Positions 19,374-54,293 of a DNA stretch of 64,000 bases are shown piece after piece. The notes under the pieces were generated by a model. That model was given only the letters and a program-made list of their open reading frames with translations. It was not told the DNA's origin and searched no databases. This DNA comes from Candidatus Woykebacteria bacterium RBG_13_40_15 (GTDB lineage: Bacteria; Patescibacteriota; Microgenomatia; Woykebacterales; RBG-16-39-9b), in contig MHCP01000030.1 of NCBI GenBank assembly GCA_001816655.1, forward strand, positions 5,623 through 69,622, written 5' to 3'. The translations under genes were made by a program, and so were the position numbers. Positions within the stretch are counted from its first letter, which is position 1. Each line of letters begins with the position of its first letter.

Positions 19374-19745
19374 ATGGAGAAAATAAAAGATTTTACTGAT
19401 TTAAGAATATGGCAGCAAGCACATAAACTAATGCTAGAGATTTATAAGTTAGGTGCAAAATTGCCAAGAGAAGAAAAATTTAACCTTATAGACCAGCTAA
19501 AACGCGCTTCCTTGTCAGTACCAACAAATATAGCCGAAGCTTTTGGTAGGTTTCATTTCACAGACTCCAATCATTTTCTACTAAATGCTAGGGGATCGGC
19601 GTACGAGGTTAGGAGTTTATTAATGGCTGTACGAGATATACAAGGAAAGAATATTATTAATTTTGATAGTTTAGATCATGATTACCAGGAACTAATTAAA
19701 GGAATAAACGCGTTAATTAAATCGCGAAAAGGAAGTAATGGTTAA
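19374..19745 (+). CDS. four-helix-bundle protein (23S rRNA intervening-sequence protein family)
   Basis: MEKIKDFTDLRIWQQAHKLMLEIYKLGAKLPREEKFNLIDQLKRASLSVPTNIAEAFGRF matches the conserved four-helix-bundle family signature. Confidence 0.8.
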   Translation: MEKIKDFTDLRIWQQAHKLMLEIYKLGAKLPREEKFNLIDQLKRASLSVPTNIAEAFGRFHFTDSNHFLLNARGSAYEVRSLLMAVRDIQGKNIINFDSLDHDYQELIKGINALIKSRKGSNG

Positions 19746-19819: not shown

Positions 19820-22534
19820 ATGCTTAAATTTTTAGGTTCTCTCTTAGATTCAAACGAACGAGAATTGAAAAAAATTGATCCCTTGGTCGCCAAAATCAAT
19901 TCTTTGGAAGATGGGGTAAAAAAACTCTCCCCCACAAAGTTTAAAGAAAAAGCAGACCTCTTTAGAAAAGAGATGGAAAAAGGCGAAAATCCAGACGAGT
20001 TTCTACCCGAAGTTTTTGCCTTAGTAAGAGAAGCCGCCCGAAGAACCCTAGGTCAGAGGCATTTTGATGTACAAATAGCTGGCGGTATTATCCTTCACCA
20101 GGGGAAAATAGCTGAGATGAAAACGGGTGAAGGAAAAACTCTTGTTGCCACACTCCCTCTCTCCCTAAACGCTTTAACAGGCAGGGGTGCTCATCTAGTA
20201 ACCGTGAATGATTATTTAGCCAAACGCGATGCCGAATGGATGGGTCCTATCTACCATTACCTGGGTTTATCTGTCGGGGTTATAAATCACGATGTAAGCT
20301 ACCTTTTCGACCCGAACAAAGAAGAGGAGGAAAAAGAGGAATTGAAAGAACAAAGCACAACCCCAGAAGCAGAAGGTTTGGGAGTAGGAAAATTTTTGCG
20401 AGAAGTAACAAGAAGAGAAGCTTACGCAGCTGATATCACCTACGGTACTAATAATGAGTATGGCTTTGATTATTTGCGCGATAATATGGCAGGAAGCCTA
20501 GAGGAAATGGTTCAGCGACCACTCAACTACGCAATCGTCGACGAAGTAGACTCAATTTTAATTGATGAAGCCCGCACTCCTCTTATAATCTCAGCTCCAG
20601 CAGAAGAAAGCACGGAAAAATATTTTCAATTTGCTTCTTTAGTCAGCCGATTAGTTAAAGACACAGATTACGTGATCGATGAGAAACTAAGGACCGCAAA
20701 TTTGACTGAAATTGGCGTGTCTAAAATCGAGCGGATGCTTGGAGTTAAAAATCTTTACGAAAGTGATTTTGAAGCTATTCACCACATCGAAGAGGCCCTA
20801 AAAGCGCAAACTCTTTACCACAAAGATAAGGACTACGTTGTGAAGGAAGGTGAGGTAATAATTGTTGACGAATTTACTGGAAGAATGCTTCCTGGCCGCC
20901 GTTACTCCGAAGGATTGCACCAGGCAATTGAAGCCAAAGAAGGAGTTGCGGTTCAGAAAGAAAGCAAAACCATGGCGACAATTTCTTTTCAAAATCTTTT
21001 CCGATTGTATGAAAAATTAGCCGGAATGACTGGTACTGCAACAACCAGCGCAGAAGAGTTCCACAAAGTTTACAAACTAGATGTGGTTAGTACTCCAACT
21101 CATAAGCCAATGATCAGAGAGGACTTTCCGGATAGTGTCTACAAAACAGAAAAAGCAAAATGGCAGGCTGTGGCAGCAGAGATTGAAGAAAATCACGCTA
21201 AAGGGCAGCCAGTTCTGGTTGGAACTACTTCAATTGAAAAGAATGAGTTGCTCTCAGATTTATTAAAACGCAAGAAAATCCCTCATGAACTGCTTAATGC
21301 AAAAAATCATGAGAGAGAGGCGCAAATTATTGCCAATGCAGGACAGAACGGTAGTGTGACTGTTGCAACCAACATGGCCGGCCGTGGTGTTGATATAAAA
21401 CTTGGCGATGGTGTTGAAAAAATCGGTGGTCTCCATGTAATCGGTACAGAGAGACACGAGGCAAGGAGAATTGATAATCAGCTTCGAGGCAGGTGTGGCC
21501 GGCAAGGAGATCGGGGATCTAGCCGTTTCTTTGTTTCTCTGCAAGACGATATTATGAGGCTTTTTGGCGGAGATACGGTTGCAAAAGTTATGGACACGCT
21601 GAAGATCCCAGAAAATGTCCCAATTGAAAACTCAATGATTTCAAAAGCAATTGAAAGTGCGCAATCTAGAGTCGAGGGGCACAATTTTGATATCAGGAAA
21701 CGTTTAGTAGATTACGACGACGTTTTAAATAAACAAAGAGAAATAATTTATTCGCAACGTCGAAAAATTTTGGAACAGATTACTAAAAAAGACGAAACAG
21801 ATAAAAGTGAGAAAAACCAAAATTTGAAGGACCTGATGCTAGAAAAAATAGGTTCGGAAATTGATCAGATTATAGCGATATCCCAAACGGAGAGCAAAGT
21901 ACCAGACTACGAACAAATCGCAAAAGAGTTTTTTACTGTTACCCCGTTTGATGAAAAATCTCAAGGCCAAATAAAAGATCAGATTGAAAAACTTGGGATA
22001 CCTGAAAAAATAAGTGAGTTTCTATTCGACTTAGCAAAGAAGGTTTACAATGCCAGGGAAGAGCAATATGGTGCGGATGTTACAAGAGAAATAGAAAAGC
22101 TCGTTTTGCTCAACACAATTGATAGCCTCTGGATAAATCACTTGGAAGACATCGATTACTTGCGTGAAGGAATTGGTCTTCGCGGCTACGCTTCAAGAGA
22201 CCCGCTTGTAGAATACAAAGGAGAGGCTTTTAAACTGTTTGAAGATTTAATACGGGCGATTGATTTTGAAGTAACACATAGGATTTTCAAAATCCAACTT
22301 GTCCCACAAAATCAGCAAGCGCAGACAACAACTACAACAAGCGGCAGCTCAAGCTCTACAAGCGAGACTATCGCGTCAACCCCCCTCGCCAATAACCAAT
22401 CACCACTAACCAGTCATAAAAACAAGATTAGCCGCAACGACCCCTGTCCCTGTGGATCTGGATTGAAGTATAAACGTTGTGGCCTTGTAGATAGCCCGAT
22501 ACATCAAGAAAATATGGCCAAGGCTAGAGCCTAA
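19820..22534 (+). CDS. secA: preprotein translocase ATPase SecA
   Basis: The 904-aa product has DEAD-like motor motifs, GEGKTLVATLP with DEVDSILIDEARTPLIIS, and the C-terminal zinc-binding tail CPCGSGLKYKRCG. Confidence 0.95.
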   Translation: MLKFLGSLLDSNERELKKIDPLVAKINSLEDGVKKLSPTKFKEKADLFRKEMEKGENPDEFLPEVFALVREAARRTLGQRHFDVQIAGGIILHQGKIAEMKTGEGKTLVATLPLSLNALTGRGAHLVTVNDYLAKRDAEWMGPIYHYLGLSVGVINHDVSYLFDPNKEEEEKEELKEQSTTPEAEGLGVGKFLREVTRREAYAADITYGTNNEYGFDYLRDNMAGSLEEMVQRPLNYAIVDEVDSILIDEARTPLIISAPAEESTEKYFQFASLVSRLVKDTDYVIDEKLRTANLTEIGVSKIERMLGVKNLYESDFEAIHHIEEALKAQTLYHKDKDYVVKEGEVIIVDEFTGRMLPGRRYSEGLHQAIEAKEGVAVQKESKTMATISFQNLFRLYEKLAGMTGTATTSAEEFHKVYKLDVVSTPTHKPMIREDFPDSVYKTEKAKWQAVAAEIEENHAKGQPVLVGTTSIEKNELLSDLLKRKKIPHELLNAKNHEREAQIIANAGQNGSVTVATNMAGRGVDIKLGDGVEKIGGLHVIGTERHEARRIDNQLRGRCGRQGDRGSSRFFVSLQDDIMRLFGGDTVAKVMDTLKIPENVPIENSMISKAIESAQSRVEGHNFDIRKRLVDYDDVLNKQREIIYSQRRKILEQITKKDETDKSEKNQNLKDLMLEKIGSEIDQIIAISQTESKVPDYEQIAKEFFTVTPFDEKSQGQIKDQIEKLGIPEKISEFLFDLAKKVYNAREEQYGADVTREIEKLVLLNTIDSLWINHLEDIDYLREGIGLRGYASRDPLVEYKGEAFKLFEDLIRAIDFEVTHRIFKIQLVPQNQQAQTTTTTSGSSSSTSETIASTPLANNQSPLTSHKNKISRNDPCPCGSGLKYKRCGLVDSPIHQENMAKARA

Positions 22535-22600
22535 AATCACACTAATTTCTCTAAACTATAGGGCTAAATTTTGGGGTGTTTGTAACTTATTACCTCCGTG
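22470..22600 (+). repeat. repeat copy A: native secA 3' end plus downstream segment (master copy of island-boundary repeat)
   Basis: The sequence cgttgtggccttgtagatagcccgatacatcaagaaaatatggccaaggctagagcctaaaat...ctatagggctaaattttggggtgttt recurs in degenerate form at 24235-24335 and 25085-25230. Confidence 0.7.
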
Positions 22601-22701
22601 TGGGGTCCAAATTTGTTTATTCAATAATGATTATTAGATTAATCGCTCAGCCAAAACCTCAAAATAGTTCTAATTATGTAGAAACAGTATCGGATTCTTA
22701 G

Positions 22702-23670
22702 CTATAAGACGATATTGAACAGGTAACCTGTGAAAATTATCCCTAAACCAACAATCGAGGCAAAAGTAATTATTAGTTTAGGTTTCAAAACCTTCCTAAG
22801 GATGATAAATTCAGGTAATGATAAGGCTGTGACAGACATCATAAAGGCCAAAGCAGTTCCCATTGCCATACCTTTATCAATCAAAACAGAAACGATAGGG
22901 ATTGTTCCTGCTGCGTTTGAATAGAGTGGGATACCGATTACGGTTGCCAAAGGAACAGCAAAAAAGTTTCCTTTACCTGCATAACTAACAAGAAAATCGT
23001 TTGGAATATAACCGTGTATAACTGACCCTAGAGCAACACCGCTAATAATATAAAGCCAAACTTTACCTACTATTTCTTTTGAGTAATTAACTGCGTAGTT
23101 TACCCTGTCTTTGAAAGTTAGTGTTTGTTCACTGCCATTTGCTGCCTTTACCTTATAAACAAATTCCTCTACCCACTTTTCAAGTTTTAATTTGCCTAGG
23201 ATACTTCCGGCAACAGTAGCTATCAAAACACCGCTGACAACATAGATTAAAGCGATTTTCCAACCAAACAGGCCCCAAAGAAGAATAAGGGCGACTTCAT
23301 TTACCATAGGAGAAGATATTAAGAAGGAAAAAGTGACACCTAAAGGAACTCCCGCCTCAACAAATCCGATAAATAATGGTACTGCAGAGCAAGAGCAAAA
23401 TGGCGTAACAATTCCAACCGTGGCAGCTAAGAAGTTATTTAGTAGTGGAAATTTTTGATTCGATAGATACTTCTTTGTTTTTTTAGGAGGGAAGTAAGAG
23501 CGAATAATGGATACAATAAAAATAATAGCCGATAAGAGAATGATGATTTTGATTGTGTCGTAGATAAAAAAGTTTAATGACTTTGCTAACGCAGAACTTT
23601 GGTCAACTTTAAGCAGAGTTTCGGTAATAAATTTAGAAAATAACTCTAACGGATAGAATATCTTATCCAT
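22702..23670 (-). CDS. arsP: ArsP-like permease (DUF318/UPF0718 family, putative organoarsenical efflux)
   Basis: The product is polytopic and carries the TPFCSCS motif in VTPFCSCSAVPLFIGFVEAG. It sits in an operon with arsR and a thioredoxin-like protein. Confidence 0.7.
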   Translation of the reverse strand: MDKIFYPLELFSKFITETLLKVDQSSALAKSLNFFIYDTIKIIILLSAIIFIVSIIRSYFPPKKTKKYLSNQKFPLLNNFLAATVGIVTPFCSCSAVPLFIGFVEAGVPLGVTFSFLISSPMVNEVALILLWGLFGWKIALIYVVSGVLIATVAGSILGKLKLEKWVEEFVYKVKAANGSEQTLTFKDRVNYAVNYSKEIVGKVWLYIISGVALGSVIHGYIPNDFLVSYAGKGNFFAVPLATVIGIPLYSNAAGTIPIVSVLIDKGMAMGTALAFMMSVTALSLPEFIILRKVLKPKLIITFASIVGLGIIFTGYLFNIVL

Positions 23671-23942
23671 TAACAGCAGTCCTTATCAGAACAACAGTTA
23701 TCACCACAAGTATTTTCTAGAATTGCCTCTTTTACGCCCTCAACACTAAAACTTTTGACTTCCGCTAGTGTTCCATCGACTGTAAGTATAGGGCCGTGCA
23801 CAAGACTCATCTCAACTATCTCTTGGACATTTGTTGAGTACTCAATTTCAGCATCAATGTTCGCTTCTTTAACTGCTTCTTTTGCCATTTCGTACAGTTT
23901 TTTACAAGTGGGACAACCCGAACCGATAATTTTAATTTTCAT
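23670..23942 (-). CDS. thioredoxin-fold redox-active disulfide protein 2 (ars-operon associated)
   Basis: The N-terminal CPTCKKLYEMAKEAV has a CxxC in a thioredoxin-like small protein. The C-terminal Cys cluster is GDNCCSDKDCC. Confidence 0.7.
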   Translation of the reverse strand: MKIKIIGSGCPTCKKLYEMAKEAVKEANIDAEIEYSTNVQEIVEMSLVHGPILTVDGTLAEVKSFSVEGVKEAILENTCGDNCCSDKDCC

Positions 23943-24201
23943 TATTTCCTCCTATTTTATTTAATGCTTTTATAATGTTATGAAGGCCATTTTTATTGAG
24001 TGAATAGTAGTTATTCTTACCACAACGACAGTTTTCAATTATTCCTGCTTCTTTTAGTACGCCTAGGTGATGGGAGACAAGATTTTGAGGAAGTTTTACT
24101 TTTTTCTCGATTTCGCAAACGCACAAAGAACCTTTTGATAGTAGTTCAACTATCTTTAATCTATTTTCTTCCGCTAAGGCCTTAAACATATCAATCATCA
24201 T
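23932..24201 (-). CDS. arsR: ArsR/SmtB family metalloregulatory transcriptional repressor
   Basis: It has a wHTH domain with the metal-binding CVC, LSKGSLCVCEIEKKVKLPQNLVSHHLGVLKEAGII. Confidence 0.85.
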   Translation of the reverse strand: MMIDMFKALAEENRLKIVELLSKGSLCVCEIEKKVKLPQNLVSHHLGVLKEAGIIENCRCGKNNYYSLNKNGLHNIIKALNKIGGNNEN

Positions 24202-24234
24202 TGATATGATACAACTGGTTGCTTGTTTTAGTCA

Positions 24235-24335
24235 AGGGCTATATGTGCACCATTACACAAGCACTTCAAAAAATGCGGGCTTGTAGATAGCCCTACCCAT
24301 CAAGAAAATATGGCTAAGGCTAAACCATAATATTA
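24235..24335 (+). repeat. repeat copy B: degenerate in-frame copy of secA 3' end
   Basis: tgcgggcttgtagatagccctacccatcaagaaaatatggctaaggctaaaccataa translates in frame to CGLVDSPTHQENMAKAKP* with the stop codon retained. The secA end reads CGLVDSPIHQENMAKARA*. Most differences are at synonymous positions. Confidence 0.7.
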
Positions 24336-24394
24336 TTCTAATCTTCCAAGTAACTCCAAATGCGACTTGACAAGATACAACAATATGTAATACA

Positions 24395-24643
24395 ATGTGT
24401 TACGTAATGAAACCCGAATCATTGCCAAGAAAAATTTTAAATGTATCTATTACCCCAACAATCGAAAATGAAGTAACTTCAATTGCAAAGCAGGAGCAAA
24501 AAACTAAAAGTGAAGTGGTACGCGATGCTATACGCCAGTACAGTATTTCAAGATCCTTAAACAAAATCTATGCTTATGGAAGAGAACGATCCCAAAGTTT
24601 AGGCATCGAAACCTACGAAGATATTGAAAGAATAGCTGGTTAA
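24395..24643 (+). CDS. putative ribbon-helix-helix antitoxin
   Basis: This small ORF immediately precedes the PIN toxin and overlaps it at taATGa. A CopG/RHH-like segment, KTKSEVVRDAIRQY, is present. Confidence 0.5.
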   Translation: MCYVMKPESLPRKILNVSITPTIENEVTSIAKQEQKTKSEVVRDAIRQYSISRSLNKIYAYGRERSQSLGIETYEDIERIAG

Positions 24644-25065
24644 TGAAAGTAGTTTTTGATACTAACGTCCTGATTGCTAACGCTTTAAAAGATGGATTTA
24701 CCAGAGAAATATTTAAACTAGCCGCCAACGGCACTATAGATCTCTTAACCTCAAATCCAATCCTTTCCGAATTAGAAGAAAAACTTAAGATCAAATTTTC
24801 TTGGGAAGAATCAAAAATAAACCAGTATCTGACCGTAATACGAGAAATATCCCAAGTTATAGAGCCTACGGAAAAAATAGATGTCATAAAAAACGATCCA
24901 GATGATAATAAAATTCTCGAGTGTGCGGCAGCTGGAAAAGCTGATCTAATAGTATCGTCAGATAAGGATTTAATAAAACTTAAAAATTTCCAGAGTATTG
25001 GGATAATTCACCCTAGGACTTTATCTTGGACCTTTCCTAAATATTTCAAGAAGAACAAGCCTTAA
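24643..25065 (+). CDS. PIN-domain toxin (VapC-like ribonuclease)
   Basis: MKVVFDTNVLI has the first acidic residue. Further acidic residues are in SELEEKL and DPDDNKILECA...LIVSSDKDL. The fold is a typical PIN and the product is 140 aa. Confidence 0.75.
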   Translation: MKVVFDTNVLIANALKDGFTREIFKLAANGTIDLLTSNPILSELEEKLKIKFSWEESKINQYLTVIREISQVIEPTEKIDVIKNDPDDNKILECAAAGKADLIVSSDKDLIKLKNFQSIGIIHPRTLSWTFPKYFKKNKP

Positions 25066-25084
25066 AGGTTTTAGCAGTCGTTTA

Positions 25085-25230
25085 AACCTATATGTGTACC
25101 ATTACACTAGCACTTCAAACGTTGTGGGGTTGTAAATAGTCCGATAAATCAAGAAAATATGGCTGAAGCTAGAGCCTAAAACTCCCTTAAATTTCTAAAA
25201 TTATAGGATTAAAATTTGGGTGTTTTAGTC
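25085..25230 (+). repeat. repeat copy C: degenerate in-frame copy of secA 3' end plus downstream segment
   Basis: aaacgttgtggggttgtaaatagtccgataaatcaagaaaatatggctgaagctagagcctaaaa is in frame as KRCGVVNSPINQENMAEARA*. The following ttataggattaaaatttgggtgtttt matches the region downstream of secA. Confidence 0.7.
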
Positions 25231-25311
25231 CACGAAGTGGTTGCATAACTCAAGGAGATCTATAACTTATTACACCCCCAGAAGTCTCAATAAAGTTACC
25301 CAAAAGAGTTT

Positions 25312-25845
25312 TTATTTTTTAGCAACCTGCAAGATATCTTTCTTTTTCAGGACAATATTTGAAGAACAATTATTTAGAAGTGCTCGGCTTATAAAATTTT
25401 CAAATCCAACATATATTATTTCTTTACCTTCGTCTTTTGCAGTTTTTATGGCAGGCAAAAGATCTGTGTCTGAAGAGATTAAATAGCATTTGTCATATTC
25501 ATTCTTGATAGAACCACGAACAATATCCACAGCAATCTGAACATCAACACCCTTCTCGTGAAATTTACCATCGGACATTAATAAATAACCCAGTTTTATC
25601 TCAATACGTTGATTTCTTAAGCTAGTAAAAAGTTTTTGTTGGTTAGAATAAAGAGTAAGGGATTTTTTATTGTTGTCATATTGCTTTATCTCCCCAACGT
25701 AGTAAATCAAATTTATATTTCCAGCTTTTACAATAGATTTTGCTAATGCAGCGTAATCAAATTCTGTCAGATGAAGTTTAGGAAGAATTTTCTTCACCTT
25801 ATTGTAAAAATTACTGCCATCAAACTGGACTAATATTTTTTCCAT
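25312..25845 (-). CDS. NYN-domain (LabA-like) putative ribonuclease
   Basis: The NYN motifs are LVQFDGSNFYNKV, HEKGVDVQIAVDIV and LISSDTDLLPAIK. Confidence 0.7.
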   Translation of the reverse strand: MEKILVQFDGSNFYNKVKKILPKLHLTEFDYAALAKSIVKAGNINLIYYVGEIKQYDNNKKSLTLYSNQQKLFTSLRNQRIEIKLGYLLMSDGKFHEKGVDVQIAVDIVRGSIKNEYDKCYLISSDTDLLPAIKTAKDEGKEIIYVGFENFISRALLNNCSSNIVLKKKDILQVAKK

Positions 25846-25989
25846 TTTGTTTATTGTAAGGTAAATAAAACTGACTGCAACAAAAACCCCCAGCTCGAAT
25901 TGAACTGGGGGGAATTAGCAACTTAATAGTTCTTTTCAGAACCAGCCTTATACTATCACAATTATAGAAACAACACAATATTAAATGTA

Positions 25990-26045
25990 TCCCATTAAAC
26001 AAGCACTTCAAGAAGTGTGGTCTAATCAACGCACCGCAACACAAG
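25990..26045 (+). repeat. repeat copy D: partial copy of the element-side part of the boundary repeat
   Basis: cccattaaacaagcacttcaagaagtgtggtctaatcaacgcaccgcaacac is similar to the upstream halves of copies B and C, accattacac(a/t)agcacttcaaa. It shares taatcaacgcac with copy E. Confidence 0.45.
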
Positions 26046-26171
26046 GGATAAAGTGTAGGAAAGAAAGCCCTATTAATCCTCATTAGTTGGAGCCAAATTA
26101 CCACATTTTTGTTAAAATGGTTTGTTAGTTTAAGAAATTAGGGTGGGAATTGAATTATAATTTGGTCGCTA

Positions 26172-29027
26172 TTGATGAAAGACCAACCTCGAAGCAACAA
26201 AAAAAAGAGGATTGATACAAGTTCGGAATTTTTCTACTCAGAAACGCTTCATAAGTATATCCCCTTGGATTTTCTTAAGGTCGATGAACGAATTGTGGTA
26301 GCAGCGAATAAGTTACACCTAAAACTAGATTGGGATGATGAAGGGCGGATTTGCAATATAAGTTTTATCGATGCCAAGAGACTTATTGATGTGTTAGGAT
26401 CCCATCTTTTAACCCCTGCCGAATACTGGCAGGTTTATGAGGAGATTCGAAAAAGTGGGAATAATCAGATGCTTAGTTTATTGCAATCCAATACTGCGAC
26501 TGAATGGTTAGACGCAGTGTTTGAAAGAAACGCTAACGGAGTTGTCTACATGACTGGGCACCCAAAGATTAAATATAGCAGCGGAAAAGCTGAGTTCGTA
26601 GGCGACCGTCGGAAGATTATTCAACCGGTTGCCACACCTGGTTGGTTTAACCCCACAAACAATATTGATAAACAAACCGGAATGCCGCTTAGGGTAGAAA
26701 CACGAAGAGAAAAAGGCTCCCCCAGCTGGAGTGAAACTACCTGGAAGTATTGGTCAACATTTAAAGTTGGGTACTTTGTAGCCGGCATACGCGGTTATGT
26801 AACTTCTTCAGGAACACCTTCACTCGATATGGGTATCCCGGTTGAAAACACACAGCGCTTCCTAATGATCCGAGAATGTCGGGACAAATTAGTGATCCCA
26901 GAGTTACCACCGCAACTTCTAGCAAAAGCAAAACGTTTGATAGAAGCTTATATAAAGACGACCGTGGGCACCCCTGGGATAAAAAATCCTAAAGAACACG
27001 AAAAGTTTTATGGGATGAAAGAAACGGTATTTAAATTTCTAACAAAATGTAGAAATGGGCTATTTACATCACGGGGGAAAGAAGCAAGGGAAATACAAGA
27101 GAAATTAATTGATATGTTAGGTATATTGAAGATTGAGGCGTTGAGAAAAAAAGATAATGACACTATAAAAGCTCTTGAAAGGATCACCCCAAATCTTTTC
27201 CCAAGACCTTCAAAGTTTGGTTTTTATCACTCTTTGGTAGATTTTTTAGAAAAATCCCGCGAAAGGCTTAAAAAGGCAATATCGGAAAACAAACCAATCG
27301 TGTTTGTGATGGGCCATAAGAACCCAGACACCGACACGGTAATAAGTTCTTTATTTGAAGCATATCGTAATTTTTCCTTAGACCAAACCACTTGTTTTGT
27401 ACCGTTAGTTCAAGCTTCCCGTATTCCAGATGAGATAAAACGCCTTTTGGGCCAGCGAATATCTAATGGCTTTCTTTTATCAACCGAGAAAATCTACCAA
27501 CAGGCGTTGGCGCTAGGCCAAGCTAGGTGGATTATGGTCGACCATAGTAGAAGTGAGCAACAGAAATTTACAATCAGTATTGTTGATCATCATATTTTAT
27601 CGACAACCGCCGCGCGCCAGGCAATTCCCAAAACGTGGGAGATGATTGGATCTTGCTCCGCCCAAATTACGCAAAAGATTTTTGGGGTCGGGATAGTACC
27701 CGATCAAGAGATGGCACGACTTCTGCAAGGAGCAGCGCTTATGGATACGGAAAACCGGGGGCCTAAAAAGATGACTTACAAGGACGAATTGATAATGGAT
27801 GCCTTGAGAGCTATTTCCGGGATACAGGATGAGAACCGTTTCTATCAGGATTTGATGAGCAGCCTCCTAAATACCGACGACCCAACCCGTCTGTTTGAGC
27901 GAGATTATAAGGAGGACTGGGGCATATTTGGATTTGCAGTAGCTAAAGTCAAAAATGTCTTTGATACACGAGGAGACGAACTTAAACCGGAACTTCTGAT
28001 TAAGATAGTAAGCGAAGCGGAAAGGAACAACAAACAAAAAAATTTTTGTCTGACAATAGTCAAAGTGGTTGACTATGAGGATGATAACGAGAGAGTAAAT
28101 CGTGAAAGAGTATATTTGGTTTTTAACGATTACGCCCCGGAAAAGTTTAGAGCTGTGACGTTCGAATGTCTGGAGAGAATAATCAGACATGAATTCGGAG
28201 AACGAGTAAAAATCAGAAGGCTTAATAATGCAGTCGAGTTTTGGGGAGTAGGCGATCAACTCTCTCGCAAGGTAACCGCTCCAACGTTTGAACCAATTGT
28301 ATCGGCATTTAATGAATACTATTATTCTCCTGCTATTGGGGTTCACGTTAAAAGAGACTTCTTAAGAGTAGATGAAGAAATTACTAGCTTCGCAAAAGAA
28401 CTAGGAATAAAACTTTACACTGATAAGGAAGGTAGGGTTTGTAACATTACATTTAATGAAGCTAAATGTTTGCTTGATAGCCTTGGTTTTACAATGTTAA
28501 GCTTACCGGAATATTGGCGGGTCTTGAGCGAAGTTACTAAAGTTAATGATGTTCAAATGAACCAACATTTACGCTCTAGAGGATTTGTGGAATTTCTGGA
28601 TACAGTGATTCTCGATCATCAGTTTTCGCTAAATCATCCACATATTACCGGATCGGGCGAAAATATAACATATAAAGGAAAAATAAACAAAGTCGAGATT
28701 CCGGTGGCTCTTCCAGCTCTAATTTATCCCAACGAAATTGACCAAAAGACTGGTTTACCAACTAAAACTTACGAAGCGCAGGAAAGCTATGCCGATGTAA
28801 AAGCCTGGCGATATTGGTCCCCAGATGCTCCCGTATGTATACCCACTCGTGGATATATATTTTTAATCGATAAACCAGCGTTGGATTTAAAGATTCACCC
28901 CAATGATGCTTTACCAAACTTGGGGATTAGAGTAGCCGCTAAAAAGCTTATATATCCAAATATCGAATTTCAGGAGACAAAAAAAGGACTTGAGATTAAA
29001 ATAGTTAGACCTCGGACAGCAGTTTGA
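26172..29027 (+). CDS. 951-aa protein with central DHH-family phosphoesterase domain flanked by an internally duplicated ~200-aa domain of unknown function
   Basis: The DHH motifs are FVMGHKNPDTDTVISS (I/II), MVDHSRS, IVDHHILST (DHH motif III) and GAALMDTENRG (motif IV-like). The N-terminal segment FLKVDERIVVAANKLHLKLDWDDEGRICNISFIDAKRLIDVLG...YWQVYEEI is repeated near the C-terminus as FLRVDEEITSFAKELGIKLYTDKEGRVCNITFNEAKCLLDSLG...YWRVLSEV, including the IDKQTGMPL/IDQKTGLPT motif. Confidence 0.7.
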   Translation: MMKDQPRSNKKKRIDTSSEFFYSETLHKYIPLDFLKVDERIVVAANKLHLKLDWDDEGRICNISFIDAKRLIDVLGSHLLTPAEYWQVYEEIRKSGNNQMLSLLQSNTATEWLDAVFERNANGVVYMTGHPKIKYSSGKAEFVGDRRKIIQPVATPGWFNPTNNIDKQTGMPLRVETRREKGSPSWSETTWKYWSTFKVGYFVAGIRGYVTSSGTPSLDMGIPVENTQRFLMIRECRDKLVIPELPPQLLAKAKRLIEAYIKTTVGTPGIKNPKEHEKFYGMKETVFKFLTKCRNGLFTSRGKEAREIQEKLIDMLGILKIEALRKKDNDTIKALERITPNLFPRPSKFGFYHSLVDFLEKSRERLKKAISENKPIVFVMGHKNPDTDTVISSLFEAYRNFSLDQTTCFVPLVQASRIPDEIKRLLGQRISNGFLLSTEKIYQQALALGQARWIMVDHSRSEQQKFTISIVDHHILSTTAARQAIPKTWEMIGSCSAQITQKIFGVGIVPDQEMARLLQGAALMDTENRGPKKMTYKDELIMDALRAISGIQDENRFYQDLMSSLLNTDDPTRLFERDYKEDWGIFGFAVAKVKNVFDTRGDELKPELLIKIVSEAERNNKQKNFCLTIVKVVDYEDDNERVNRERVYLVFNDYAPEKFRAVTFECLERIIRHEFGERVKIRRLNNAVEFWGVGDQLSRKVTAPTFEPIVSAFNEYYYSPAIGVHVKRDFLRVDEEITSFAKELGIKLYTDKEGRVCNITFNEAKCLLDSLGFTMLSLPEYWRVLSEVTKVNDVQMNQHLRSRGFVEFLDTVILDHQFSLNHPHITGSGENITYKGKINKVEIPVALPALIYPNEIDQKTGLPTKTYEAQESYADVKAWRYWSPDAPVCIPTRGYIFLIDKPALDLKIHPNDALPNLGIRVAAKKLIYPNIEFQETKKGLEIKIVRPRTAV

Positions 29028-29054
29028 GGCGCATTGTCCTAATAGTATTTCAAG

Positions 29055-29090
29055 AATTTTTGTTTAATCAACGCACTACAGTATAAAGGT
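29055..29090 (+). repeat. repeat copy E: short partial copy resembling copy D (putative far boundary of the cassette region)
   Basis: tttcaagaatttttgtttaatcaacgcactacag is compared with D, cttcaagaagtgtggtctaatcaacgcaccgcaac. They share the 12-mer taatcaacgcac and its flanks. Confidence 0.35.
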
Positions 29091-29167
29091 TAGCAATTTC
29101 TAATTTCTCATAAAGCACCCTTATACAATAAAGCAGTTGACTAGCAGGCTGTTTCAATCGATAATAT

Positions 29168-30388
29168 GTGCTGATTATGATTTCAATTGTCATTCCCACG
29201 TACAACGAGGAAAAAAGAATTAGTTCTTCTCTAGAGAAAGTAGTTTCATTCTTGAAAAACAGAGTCGAGGAATTCGAAATTATTGTGTCTGATGAAGGAA
29301 GCAGCGATAAGACAGGGGAAAAAGTCGAGGACTTTAAGGGAAGAATCAAAAACTTAAAGCTAATCAAAAGCGAGAGAAAGTCTTGGGCAAGAAAAGGGTT
29401 AGCCGTAAACAAAGGTGTTCTCGCGGCTAGTGGAGATATAATAGTTTTTACAGATGCCGATTTCTCAACACCAATCGAAGAAATCGACAAACTGTTATCC
29501 AAGTTAAATGCTGGGTACGATATTGCTATTGGCTCCCGCGCCCTGGATCGCTCAACTGTGAAAAGGCACCAAAATATTTTCCGCGAAACCATGGGAAGAA
29601 TTTTCAATATTCTAGTAAGAATTTTGACTGTAAGAGGTATTGTTGACACACAGTGCGGTTTCAAAGCCTTCAAACGATCCGCTGCGCGCGATCTTTTTGA
29701 ATCACAGCGAATTTTTGATTTTGGGTTTGATGTAGAGATACTTTTTCTCGCTCAACAAAGAAATTTAAAAATTGCTGAAGTACCAGTCCTTTGGTACAAC
29801 GATCCGACAAGTACTGTAAGTCCATTCAAGGACTCCCTAAATGCGTTTTTAGATCTAATCAAGATACGTTTATTTCACTCTAAGAAAAGTGGTTCTCTAT
29901 TGGATAAATTCTTCTACGCAATATTCAAATATCGAACCTTTTGGCGCTTTTCTATCGTTGGGTTGTCAAACACAGTGGTCGATTACGGGTTGTTCTTCGT
30001 CTTAACAAGTATCGTTTTCCTACCTCCTCTTGTTTCCAACCCAATTTCAGTTGAAACCGCGATTGTCTGGAGTTTTGTTTGGAATAATCTCTGGACTTTT
30101 TCAAAAAGACAAACCGAAAAGACTCTTATAAACCGCTTTTTCATATTCCAATTTGTTTCTCTCGGGGCTTTAATTCTTTCCCAAATTGGCCTTCTTATTC
30201 TAAATCAATTTTTTGGTGTTTATGCCCTCCTTGCAAAAGCAATAACAATACCAATTGTTTTGATATTTAACTATTTGCTAAACAGCCGCTGGACCTTCCG
30301 TGAAACAAGTACTGGGAAAGCAAATTGGTATATGTATGCGGCCTTCATTATTCTTCTATCAATTATCTATCTAGTTCTAGCTTTGTAA
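29168..30388 (+). CDS. GT2 glycosyltransferase fused to C-terminal GtrA-like membrane domain
   Basis: The N-terminus has ISIVIPTYNEEKRISSSLEKV, EIIVSDEGSSDKTGEKV and VFTDADFSTP. The C-terminus has four TM helices with the GtrA-like ending YLLNSRWTFRE. Confidence 0.85.
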   Translation: MLIMISIVIPTYNEEKRISSSLEKVVSFLKNRVEEFEIIVSDEGSSDKTGEKVEDFKGRIKNLKLIKSERKSWARKGLAVNKGVLAASGDIIVFTDADFSTPIEEIDKLLSKLNAGYDIAIGSRALDRSTVKRHQNIFRETMGRIFNILVRILTVRGIVDTQCGFKAFKRSAARDLFESQRIFDFGFDVEILFLAQQRNLKIAEVPVLWYNDPTSTVSPFKDSLNAFLDLIKIRLFHSKKSGSLLDKFFYAIFKYRTFWRFSIVGLSNTVVDYGLFFVLTSIVFLPPLVSNPISVETAIVWSFVWNNLWTFSKRQTEKTLINRFFIFQFVSLGALILSQIGLLILNQFFGVYALLAKAITIPIVLIFNYLLNSRWTFRETSTGKANWYMYAAFIILLSIIYLVLAL

Positions 30389-51538: not shown

Positions 51539-52306
51539 ATGGAAAATAACTATAAAAACCTCAGAGTCTACAACACTATAATGGGTTTTTTACATTTGGC
51601 TCAAGGTACAACTGTACTTCTTCTTAGCAACGATTTTAAACTTCCAATAAACACAACTTATTTAAGTTTCAACTCTACTTTAAAAGTGTTGGAACCAGTT
51701 ACAAAGCAGCTTTTCCAAGTCAAATTTGGAATATTGGTTGCCGCCTTTCTACTCATTTCCGCAGCCGCCCACTTTATAATCTCGACTGTTTATTACAAAA
51801 ATTACCAACAAAACTTAAGTAAAGGAATAAATAAAGCTAGGTGGTTTGAATATGCTTTCTCCGCTTCGCTAATGATTGTATTGATTGGAATGTTGAGCGG
51901 AATTTACGATCTTTCAAGCTTACTAATGATGTTTGGGCTGGTAGCAATTATGAACCTTTGTGGGTTACTAATGGAACTTTACAATCAGGGTAAAGAACAG
52001 GTCAATTGGGCTTCTTTCATTGTTGGTTGTATTGCGGGTATTATCCCTTGGATTGTAATTGCGATTTATTTCTGGGCAGCAGAAATAAACGGCAGCAGCA
52101 ACAATATCCCAACCTTTGTCTATTGGATTTTTGTTTCAATCTTCCTTTTCTTCAACAGCTTTGCCCTCAATATGTTTTTGCAATATAAAAAGGTGGAACC
52201 ATGGAAAGACTATCTTTTTGGAGAAAGAGTGTATATTCTGCTTAGCCTAACTGCCAAATCGGCTCTGGCCTGGCAAATCTTCGCCGGCACTTTGCGCCCA
52301 ATGTAA
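51539..52306 (+). CDS. heliorhodopsin
   Basis: It has 7 TM helices. The family motifs are GFLHLAQG (His in TM1), AAHFIIS (His in TM2) and RWFEYAFSASLMIVLIG, where the Glu corresponds to the Schiff-base counterion position. Also present are FIVGCIAGIIPW and FLFFNSFALNMFLQYKK, followed by GERVYILLSLTAKSALAWQIFAGTLRP with the retinal-binding Lys. Confidence 0.85.
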   Translation: MENNYKNLRVYNTIMGFLHLAQGTTVLLLSNDFKLPINTTYLSFNSTLKVLEPVTKQLFQVKFGILVAAFLLISAAAHFIISTVYYKNYQQNLSKGINKARWFEYAFSASLMIVLIGMLSGIYDLSSLLMMFGLVAIMNLCGLLMELYNQGKEQVNWASFIVGCIAGIIPWIVIAIYFWAAEINGSSNNIPTFVYWIFVSIFLFFNSFALNMFLQYKKVEPWKDYLFGERVYILLSLTAKSALAWQIFAGTLRPM

Positions 52307-54216: not shown

Positions 54217-54293
54217 TGGTACCGCCAGGGGGATTCGAACCCCCGATCTCAGCGTTGAGAACGCTGCGTCCTAGACCACTAGACGATGGCGGC
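54217..54293 (-). tRNA. tRNA-Glu (anticodon CUC)
   Basis: The minus-strand read is GCCGCCATCGTCTAGTGGTCTAGGACGCAGCGTTCTCAACGCTGAGATCGGGGGTTCGAATCCCCCTGGCGGTACCA. It has a 7-bp acceptor stem, the anticodon loop TTCTCAA, the T-loop GGTTCGAATCC and an encoded CCA. Confidence 0.8.

Follow-up and report, generated by a model that had tools for sequence, protein, structure and literature searches.

In Candidatus Woykebacteria bacterium RBG_13_40_15, which belongs to the Microgenomates branch of the candidate phyla radiation (CPR, or Patescibacteria), the gene secA is followed by four unrelated gene modules and by repeated copies of its own 3' end. The stretch analysed, called the window below, is 64,000 nucleotides of contig MHCP01000030.1 (positions 5,623 to 69,622). 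The region behind secA is probably an array of four mobile cassettes in the last 10 to 20 codons of this gene, with sites composed of an arm, a core and a tail, and with a recombinase acting in trans.

Between secA and the gene for a GT2/GtrA glycosyltransferase, the four modules (M1 to M4) alternate with five copies of the secA end (A to E), all of them direct repeats on the same strand. A preliminary description of this stretch had reported these copies and modules, and both are present where it placed them. The alignment of the copies is far beyond chance. The 20-nt arm piece CCATTACACAAGCACTTCAA has three matches in the window against 0.01 expected, and a 28-mer specific to copies D and E has two, also against 0.01 expected. 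Chance is excluded as the origin of the repeat copies. Related loci are given L-numbers; several of them are short metagenome contigs. The features of the array are as follows.

19820-22534, plus strand: secA, the target gene (904 amino acids; protein 100% identical to SecA of Candidatus Woykebacteria bacterium RBG_13_40_15)
22472-22534, plus strand: copy A, the functional secA end; core AAACGTTGTGG at 22472-22482, long tail ending in GLVDSPIHQENMAKARA, stop codon at 22532-22534
22535-22612, plus strand: block of the long 3' untranslated region (3'UTR) behind copy A, taaaa.c..taatttc..tata.g..taaattttggggtgttt.taacttattacctcc
22702-24201, minus strand: M1 cargo; ArsP_1 permease (22702-23670), thioredoxin-like protein (23670-23942) and ArsR (23932-24201)
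24235-24206: promoter-like site of M1, the cassette's own
24230-24330, plus strand: copy B; arm 24230-24267, core 24268-24278, long tail, stop codon 24328-24330
24331-25065, plus strand: M2 cassette; leader with promoter, RHH antitoxin (24395-24643) and PIN toxin (24643-25065)
24367-24396: promoter-like site of M2, TTGACA-18-TACAAT
25079-25179, plus strand: copy C; arm 25079-25116, core 25117-25127, long tail, stop codon 25177-25179
25180-25311, plus strand: long 3'UTR block behind copy C, split by a 33-nt mini-insert (25230-25262)
25312-25845, minus strand: M3 cargo, NYN-domain protein (Pfam NYN)
25887-25911, minus strand: hairpin with T-run that resembles a minus-strand terminator, flanked by the NYN start codon and the arm of copy D
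25972-26051, plus strand: copy D; arm 25972-26009, core 26010-26020, short tail KKCGLINAPQHKG, stop codon 26049-26051
26172-29027, plus strand: M4 cargo, 951-aa protein with a weak Pfam DHH match
29014-29093, plus strand: copy E; decayed arm, core 29052-29062, decayed short tail KNFCLINALQYKG and stop; adjoins the GT2/GtrA gene
29168-30388, plus strand: GT2/GtrA glycosyltransferase, the conserved flank on the right, with orthologues in L001, L098 and L103

Anatomy of the sites

The site has three parts: an arm of 38 nt, a core of 11 nt, and a replacement SecA tail with its stop codon. The arm has no recognisable origin in secA and was not separated out in the preliminary description. Its consensus is TTGAACCTATATGTGTACCATTAAACAAGCACTTC. 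It is intact in copies B, C and D, decayed in E, and missing from secA. The core, with the consensus AARMRNTGYGG, codes for Lys-Lys/Arg-Cys-Gly and contains the third cysteine of the SecA zinc finger.

The tails are of two types. The long type, ending in SPTHQENMAKAKA and following the pattern L(V/I)(D/N)SP.HQENMAKA.A, is found in copies A, B and C, and the short type, ending in LINAPQHKG, in copies D and E. Copies B and C read in frame up to a stop codon as KKCGLVDSPTHQENMAKAKP and KRCGVVNSPINQENMAEARA, exactly as first reported. Both tail types are genuine SecA C-termini among relatives. The displaced tails B and C match such C-termini, in agreement with the earlier proposal that these two copies were secA ends elsewhere. 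Since the short tail is a genuine SecA end in relatives, D and E are also former or potential secA ends, and copy E is probably the oldest, the ancestral secA end. A conserved 3'UTR block of ~90 nt often trails the long tails; it is present after A, after C, and after many secA genes.

The displaced long tails are coding-like. Their differences per codon position are 5.0/2.4/6.4, against 3.9/3.1/6.3 in native tails. The earlier statement that the differences of B and C from A are concentrated at synonymous sites did not withstand a hand count of codons, which gave four synonymous and three non-synonymous differences between A and B, and three and four, respectively, between A and C.

The borders of the arm are sharp. 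Positions -38 to -1 are conserved in 13 to 16 non-orthologous cassettes, and the sequence is random further upstream. Two possible origins of the arm were rejected. It is not coding sequence, as its differences are even over the codon positions (4.1/3.5/4.3) and 3 of 15 copies contain in-frame stops; no SecA among 240 has an arm-like coding end. It is not diverged secA zinc-finger sequence either, because the identity is 25%, equal to that in shifted registers. The sole local match between arm and secA is GA.CCT at -33 to -28. Because the arm is conserved although it is non-coding, its recognition by a protein, a recombinase in trans, is the favoured explanation.

The mini-insert behind copy C belongs to a sequence of ~33 nt, CCACRAAGTGG.YGCA.A.CTCRAG.AGATCTA, that forms two small hairpins and recurs only within copies of the secA tail or 3'UTR. 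It was seen in the window (25230-25262), in L084 (~680-712), in L085 (~1080-1112), and twice in L002 (10884-10915 and 14688-14720). Its contexts are the long 3'UTR, short tails, where it separates CGL from INAP.HK, and, in L002, the position directly behind the stop codon of secA. The insert appears to be a tiny mobile sequence or a scar connected with the secA cassettes.

Related genomes, mobility and tail switching

Sites of the same structure are found in related genomes. A scan of Joint Genome Institute (JGI) metagenomes for the arm-core pattern CCATTANNNNAGCNCTTCAANNNNTGNGG gave seven matches, and all seven show an arm followed by a SecA-tail remnant. Four of the seven lie visibly downstream of secA (L081, L083, L086, and L087), and L085 starts inside the secA 3' end. 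The left flank is conserved as glmS-cofD-epimerase-GT2-(400-aa protein)-secA and the right flank as GT2/GtrA-128-aa protein-prfB. The variable interval between these flanks was surveyed in ~10 genomes. It holds 0-7 cassettes, and secA is intact in all genomes examined.

L001: one cassette behind secA, before the same GT2/GtrA gene
L087: two cassettes behind secA
L102: two cassettes behind secA
L105: two cassettes behind secA
L101: one cassette behind secA
L096: at least one cassette behind secA; the RHH/PIN cassette is directly behind secA, and the ArsR module (M1) is absent
L098: six units bounded by seven copies
L092 (distant relative): no cassette; bacA and prfB directly behind secA

The differences at the site among L001, L096, L098, and L092 bear out the earlier reading of the site as a hotspot, with different cargo in related genomes. 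Copies of the secA end were not found in the distant relatives L092 to L094. L096 is the closest relative found, and its SecA protein is 91% identical to that of the window.

Two loci show arrangements of another kind. In L002 (OZ246414.1, 10841-11009), secA has a short tail ending in SPQHKG, and ~95 nt further on there is a displaced long-tail remnant, NIPTHQEYLAKAKT, with its stop codon. A hairpin lies between the short tail and the remnant, and ~3.8 kb further is a Phd/RelE cassette with a degenerate arm. L002 carries scars of the secA cassette system. In L087, an "empty unit" (1803-1871) consists of the secA stop codon, 34 nt resembling a truncated arm, and a partial short tail, GLINTPWHKG, followed by the first cassette. 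By its structure, this unit could be an excision scar.

The M2 unit is 786 nt long, extending from just past the upstream stop codon to the end of its own arm. Its identity between the window, L096 and L098 is 95.7-96.6%, and 13 to 18 of 224 third codon positions differ (6-8%). The adjoining secA is 82.7% identical between the window and L096 and 69.2% identical between the window and L098, with 39% and 53% of third positions differing. The position of M2 in the array also varies: it comes first in L096 and second in the two others, after M1 in the window and after an unrelated unit in L098. These comparisons clearly indicate that the RHH/PIN cassette is horizontally mobile.

Local duplication or an assembly artefact, with no mobility at all, can hardly be the origin of the array. 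Slippage or mis-assembly of metagenomes can in principle generate repeats, and nothing more specific speaks for it. The same array order is present in two independent assemblies, L088 (Logan SRR1605725) and L089 (ERZ4902897). Arm-tail sites occur in many other genomes and samples with other cargo, and M2 is far more alike between genomes than secA is.

The arms travel with the upstream cargo, and the tail type behind the arm changes, as is seen for M2 and for the NYN cassette. Behind the M2 arm, the window has a long tail and 3'UTR, and L096 and L098 have a short tail. The NYN arm has a derived variant, TGTATCCC, with a short tail behind it in the window and a long one in L084; the NYN copy of L084 is 72% identical to M3 of the window and has the same arm variant. 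A target-site duplication of the style of CRISPR repeats or casposons is ruled out, as in L096 and L098 the tails on the two sides of M2 differ in type, long upstream and short downstream.

The tail of secA itself changes as well. The functional SecA tail has evidently been replaced again and again, because on a neighbour-joining tree of 67 SecA bodies its type must have changed at least 16 times (shuffling of the labels gave a mean of 22 and a minimum of 15).

The GC content of the modules had been proposed as a further check on their origin. M1 to M3 (0.31-0.39) are somewhat more AT-rich than secA (0.415) and M4 is not, and this is weak evidence either way.

Proposed recombination and its possible catalyst

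It is likely that each cassette brings a two-part site, namely the 38-nt element-specific arm and a mimic of the secA end (core, tail with stop codon, and often 3'UTR). Presumably from a circular intermediate, this site would undergo reciprocal recombination, the partner being either the secA end in place or a copy displaced earlier. The cassette would enter, the core-tail block would be duplicated, and secA would remain whole, at times with another tail. Further rounds, for the most part probably at the secA-proximal end, would stack the cassettes, and the oldest copies, such as E, would decay. The catalyst is most likely a recombinase that is coded elsewhere in the genome and recognises the arm. 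The cargo, made up of typical accessory or addiction modules, would bring its own promoters. Reciprocal recombination of this kind would account for the direct repeats, the intact secA, the stacking, the decay gradient (E being the worst), the reshuffled neighbours and the tail switching.

The junctions differ from case to case. Compared with L096, the M1 insertion has exact limits, beginning behind the stop codon of A and ending at that of B, and tail B is a distinct allele over its whole length, with 49 to 51 of 63 positions identical to all others. The right junctions of M2 and of the NYN cassette are at the border between arm and core, and the switching of the SecA tail needs an exchange at or near the same border. 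Thus, recombination would occur within the core-tail block of 42-63 nt, at either of its edges. The preliminary description had proposed site-specific integration into the secA 3' end with restoration of the gene; the restoring copies and the variability of the site support this proposal, which, with breakpoints at both edges of the core-tail block, may not hold in the strict sense of site-specificity. The copy A allele is identical to the L096 secA end at 60 of 63 positions, and in L096 that end adjoins the RHH/PIN cassette. The tail allele that accompanies this cassette elsewhere therefore sits at A, not B, in the window. There is no unique assignment of tails to cassettes, nor of the order of insertion.

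Several observations weigh against a dedicated recombinase acting on these sites. There is no single crossover point, since M1 is bounded by two stop codons and M2 and NYN have junctions at the arm/core border. No invariant stretch of 6-8 bp is common to secA and all cassette sites, which share only AA....TG.GG. Dyad symmetry around the core is not significant, as 164 of 1000 column permutations reach the observed value. The sites form no hairpin: single-stranded folds of copies A to D on both strands have z-scores of -2.0 to +0.2 against shuffles (-2.0, -1.5, -0.2, -0.7, 0.0, 0.0, +0.2, and +0.2). No recombinase was found in 40 open reading frames (ORFs) scanned in the window, as the preliminary description had stated, and the remaining ORFs look like housekeeping genes by eye. 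None was found in ~24 cassettes or in the 10-kb flanks of ~10 genomes. Neither a circular form nor an autonomous parent element was seen in viral, phage and plasmid collections.

One candidate site and one candidate enzyme were rejected. A palindromic recombinase site around the core was significant against per-sequence shuffles and failed the column-permutation control given above. An integrase-like peptide in L082 is spurious, lying on the opposite strand of a real gene. The search for a recombinase covered the cassette ORFs of L001, L081, L083, and L087, with none found, and the Pfam matches of called genes within 10 kb of secA in L092 to L106, which include no Phage_integrase, Resolvase or Recombinase. 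The sole exception in the flanks is an insertion sequence (IS)-type DDE transposase gene (rve, rve_3) at 8800-9519 of L102, directly upstream of secA, which is most likely an unrelated IS insertion. Viral contigs gave only two chance matches, and phage and plasmid collections none, so that no phage or plasmid carrying attP was found. Rfam detected no known RNA family in the window array or in related arrays.

Because the breakpoints vary, no recombinase has been found and the site has no symmetry, homologous recombination of the RecA type stays a serious rival, if on balance an unlikely one. It would operate with no dedicated recombinase, on DNA taken up from outside or on circles, and the core-tail block (42-63 nt, at most ~150 nt with the 3'UTR) would be the portable homology. 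Breakpoints at both edges of the homology block are expected if Holliday junctions migrate until they meet heterology. The tails are also mosaic; identity between tail B and the tail L098 d1 is 94% over the 5' half and 58% over the last 24 nt. A ParE/Phd module common to L098 and L102 (87% identity) has no flanking tail or arm, which also favours exchange by homology, as do the lack of a recombinase in cis in the window, cassettes and flanks scanned and the lack of recombinase-type symmetry and an invariant overlap. However, RecA-type exchange leaves the sharp-bordered conserved arm, 38 nt of non-coding sequence shared across unrelated cargo, unexplained. The homology is short and ~80%, and A and B, read from the aligned tails, match without interruption over at most 14-17 nt, which would make the process inefficient. 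Moreover, the tails inside one array are not homogenised.

Another possibility is that integrase-bearing islands, such as integrative and conjugative elements (ICEs), integrative and mobilizable elements (IMEs) or prophages, inserted serially into the secA 3' end and later lost their integrases. Direct repeats with the target gene's end and tandem elements are the pattern described for the accretion of cis-mobilizable elements (CIMEs) (PMC5704250), and a unit of L098 carries a plasmid-type Replic_Relax gene. This origin is nevertheless quite improbable. No integrase, and no set of relaxase and coupling protein, is present in ~24 units from ~10 genomes. The units are small (0.8-3 kb) with tightly packed cargo, unlike ragged deletion products, and the small unit itself moves, as M2 (786 nt) is 96% identical in three genomes. 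No phage or plasmid carrying the corresponding attP was found. The earlier comparison to classical integrating islands holds for the repeats with a gene end, and fails on the size of the units and on their lack of integrases.

For the favoured reading, cassettes with arm-core-tail sites and a recombinase in trans, the closest parallels are systems with a fixed target and stacked units. The secA array behaves like the staphylococcal cassette chromosome (SCC) at rlmH, the CIME accretion at fda, and integron arrays, and belongs to none of these systems. In staphylococci, SCC elements (SCCmec and pseudo-SCC) reside in the 3' coding end of rlmH/orfX and leave this gene intact. They form tandem composite arrays with direct repeats of the gene end, and some units use a recombinase in trans. 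The secA arrays are likewise tandem direct repeats with the gene end (five copies in the window, seven in L098) beside an intact secA. They differ in the target (secA instead of rlmH) and in the host, a CPR bacterium. The repeats are 80-100 nt, comprising an arm and a full replacement tail, in contrast to 15-18 bp in SCC. No ccr-type serine recombinase (no Resolvase or Recombinase domain) is found in any array or flank, and the units are much smaller.

In Streptococcus thermophilus, ICESt1/ICESt3 and CIMEs accrete in tandem at the 3' end of fda (PMC5704250). There, too, the att repeats hold the end of a protein gene, and integrase-less units bounded by att sites pile up in tandem (PMC5704250). 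In contrast, CIMEs are decayed ICEs or IMEs beside an integrase-bearing partner, and no such partner or parent is seen at secA, where the small unit itself is shared between genomes.

The array resembles integron arrays, those of sedentary chromosomal integrons included, in its stack of small units, each with a recombination site and one gene or a few; toxin-antitoxin pairs are frequent among these genes. Insertion would be at the proximal end with older units distal, and integron arrays may also lack an integrase. An integron, or an attC cluster without integrase (CALIN), would explain small cassettes rich in toxin-antitoxin pairs, related sites of ~100 nt, and an array without integrase. It is very improbable all the same, since the sites fold no better than shuffled sequence on either strand and have no R''/R' motifs. 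The secA sites lack the attC hairpin, and no RYYYAAC/GTTRRRY motif is visible in their alignment. Integron cassettes are mostly promoterless and co-oriented, whereas the secA cassettes are in both orientations and have promoter-like sites of their own. Complete integrons have intI, attI and the Pc promoter at the head of the array. At the head of this array is secA, and there is no IntI or attI in the window ORFs or upstream of secA in L096 to L105. As the proximal site there is the end of an essential coding sequence, which each cassette site mimics.

Other systems are less similar. Islands at tRNA and tmRNA genes also restore the 3' end of the target by an element-borne copy, but the target here is a protein-coding end. 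Among Xer-dependent elements (IMEX and pdif modules), the pdif modules are also small, recombinase-less and often toxin-antitoxin, and in that known system a host enzyme moves them in trans. Whereas pdif sites occur in alternating orientation, the secA sites are all direct repeats. No 28-bp dif-like 11-6-11 symmetry was detectable around the core (again 164 of 1000 permutations). The core shows no likeness to common dif consensus sequences, from which the dif of Woykebacteria may differ, so that an Xer-dependent system may still apply. Tn7 inserts at attTn7, downstream of the stop codon, with tnsABC(D), terminal inverted repeats and a 5-bp target duplication, and makes no copy of a gene end. 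By contrast, the secA cassettes have no transposase genes, and 42-63-nt copies of the secA end lie at their borders. In the literature, nothing was found on cassettes aimed at secA or on integron-like platforms in Patescibacteria.

It may be, and this is put forward tentatively, that the array is a cassette-capture platform confined so far to Woykebacteria. The secA 3' end would play the role of attI, and the arm with the SecA mimic would be the equivalent of attC. The enzyme would be an unlinked and possibly new recombinase, or a host enzyme such as Xer, and the zinc-finger tail of SecA would be swapped between two alleles as a by-product.

Cargo, surroundings and significance

The identities given to the modules in the preliminary description (an ArsR operon, an RHH/PIN pair, an NYN protein and a DHH giant) hold by Pfam. 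M1 matches HTH_5 (ArsR), Thioredoxin_3 (the thioredoxin-like protein), and ArsP_1 (the permease). M2 matches RHH_1 and PIN_3; the RHH_1 match, like the DHH match of M4, is weak. The orientations of M1 to M4 alternate (minus, plus, minus, and plus), as had been noted. Well-placed promoter-like sites precede M1, M2, and GT2, and those of M1 and M2 are strong. The hairpin at 25887-25911, upstream of the NYN start codon, is strong, with 10 pairs. To judge from its position, it could shield the NYN cassette against transcriptional read-through from the right.

In its central part (residues 377-637), the 951-aa M4 protein is similar to family II Mn-dependent inorganic pyrophosphatases (PDB 9m0m, E = 4e-9). 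One unknown domain is present twice in it, as the N-terminal and as the C-terminal third, and PADLOC gave no match for this protein. A 33-nt inverted repeat with 85% complementarity pairs 21803-21835, in the coding sequence of secA, with 27202-27234, in that of the 951-aa protein. By a rough estimate, ~0.004 such pairs are expected by chance in 9 kb.

Across the arrays, units of 0.8-3 kb hold mostly one to three cargo genes, at most five, packed tightly between the site halves. The cargo includes many RHH/PIN, Phd/RelE/ParE/YafQ and HigB-like pairs, NYN proteins, proteins of unknown function, and one C5 DNA methyltransferase. Genes for MarR-type regulators are also found; one cassette pairs MarR with an RnfD-like gene, and sets of MarR and ATP-binding cassette (ABC) efflux genes lie just past the last detectable repeat copy in L096 and L102. 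No gene resembling those of replication or mobilisation was seen in the cassettes other than that for the plasmid-type Replic_Relax protein of L098 (18480-19271; PF13814, E = 1.6e-8, above the curated cut-off).

Upstream of secA there is slight variation as well. A gene for a 23S rRNA intervening-sequence protein (PF05635) lies at 19374-19745, between the conserved 409-aa gene and secA, and is missing at that position in L096 and L098. Elsewhere in the window, there is a full-length heliorhodopsin gene (51539-52306; PF18761, E = 1e-100). In the segment 52356-54293, a nucleotidyltransferase (Aminoglyc_resit-like) and a protein with a weak JAB-domain match are neighbours of tRNA-Glu (54217-54293), the only tRNA gene in the window. 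The segment may be a small accessory patch.

The genomes of CPR bacteria are tiny, and their mobile elements are little known. The secA site is a well-defined hotspot, found repeatedly in the lineage, at which accessory genes accumulate and pass from species to species. Its cargo includes genes for toxin-antitoxin pairs, for nucleases, for a DNA methyltransferase, and for metal or efflux regulators. Here the end of an essential coding sequence serves as a recombination target that incoming elements must rebuild, and the swapping of tails would explain the polymorphism of the SecA C-terminal tail in this clade. The motif of arm and core provides a handle for finding the enzyme and excised circles in read data, and perhaps one day for integration tools in organisms that have no genetic system. 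The system would count as a new kind if its enzyme or chemistry proves unusual.

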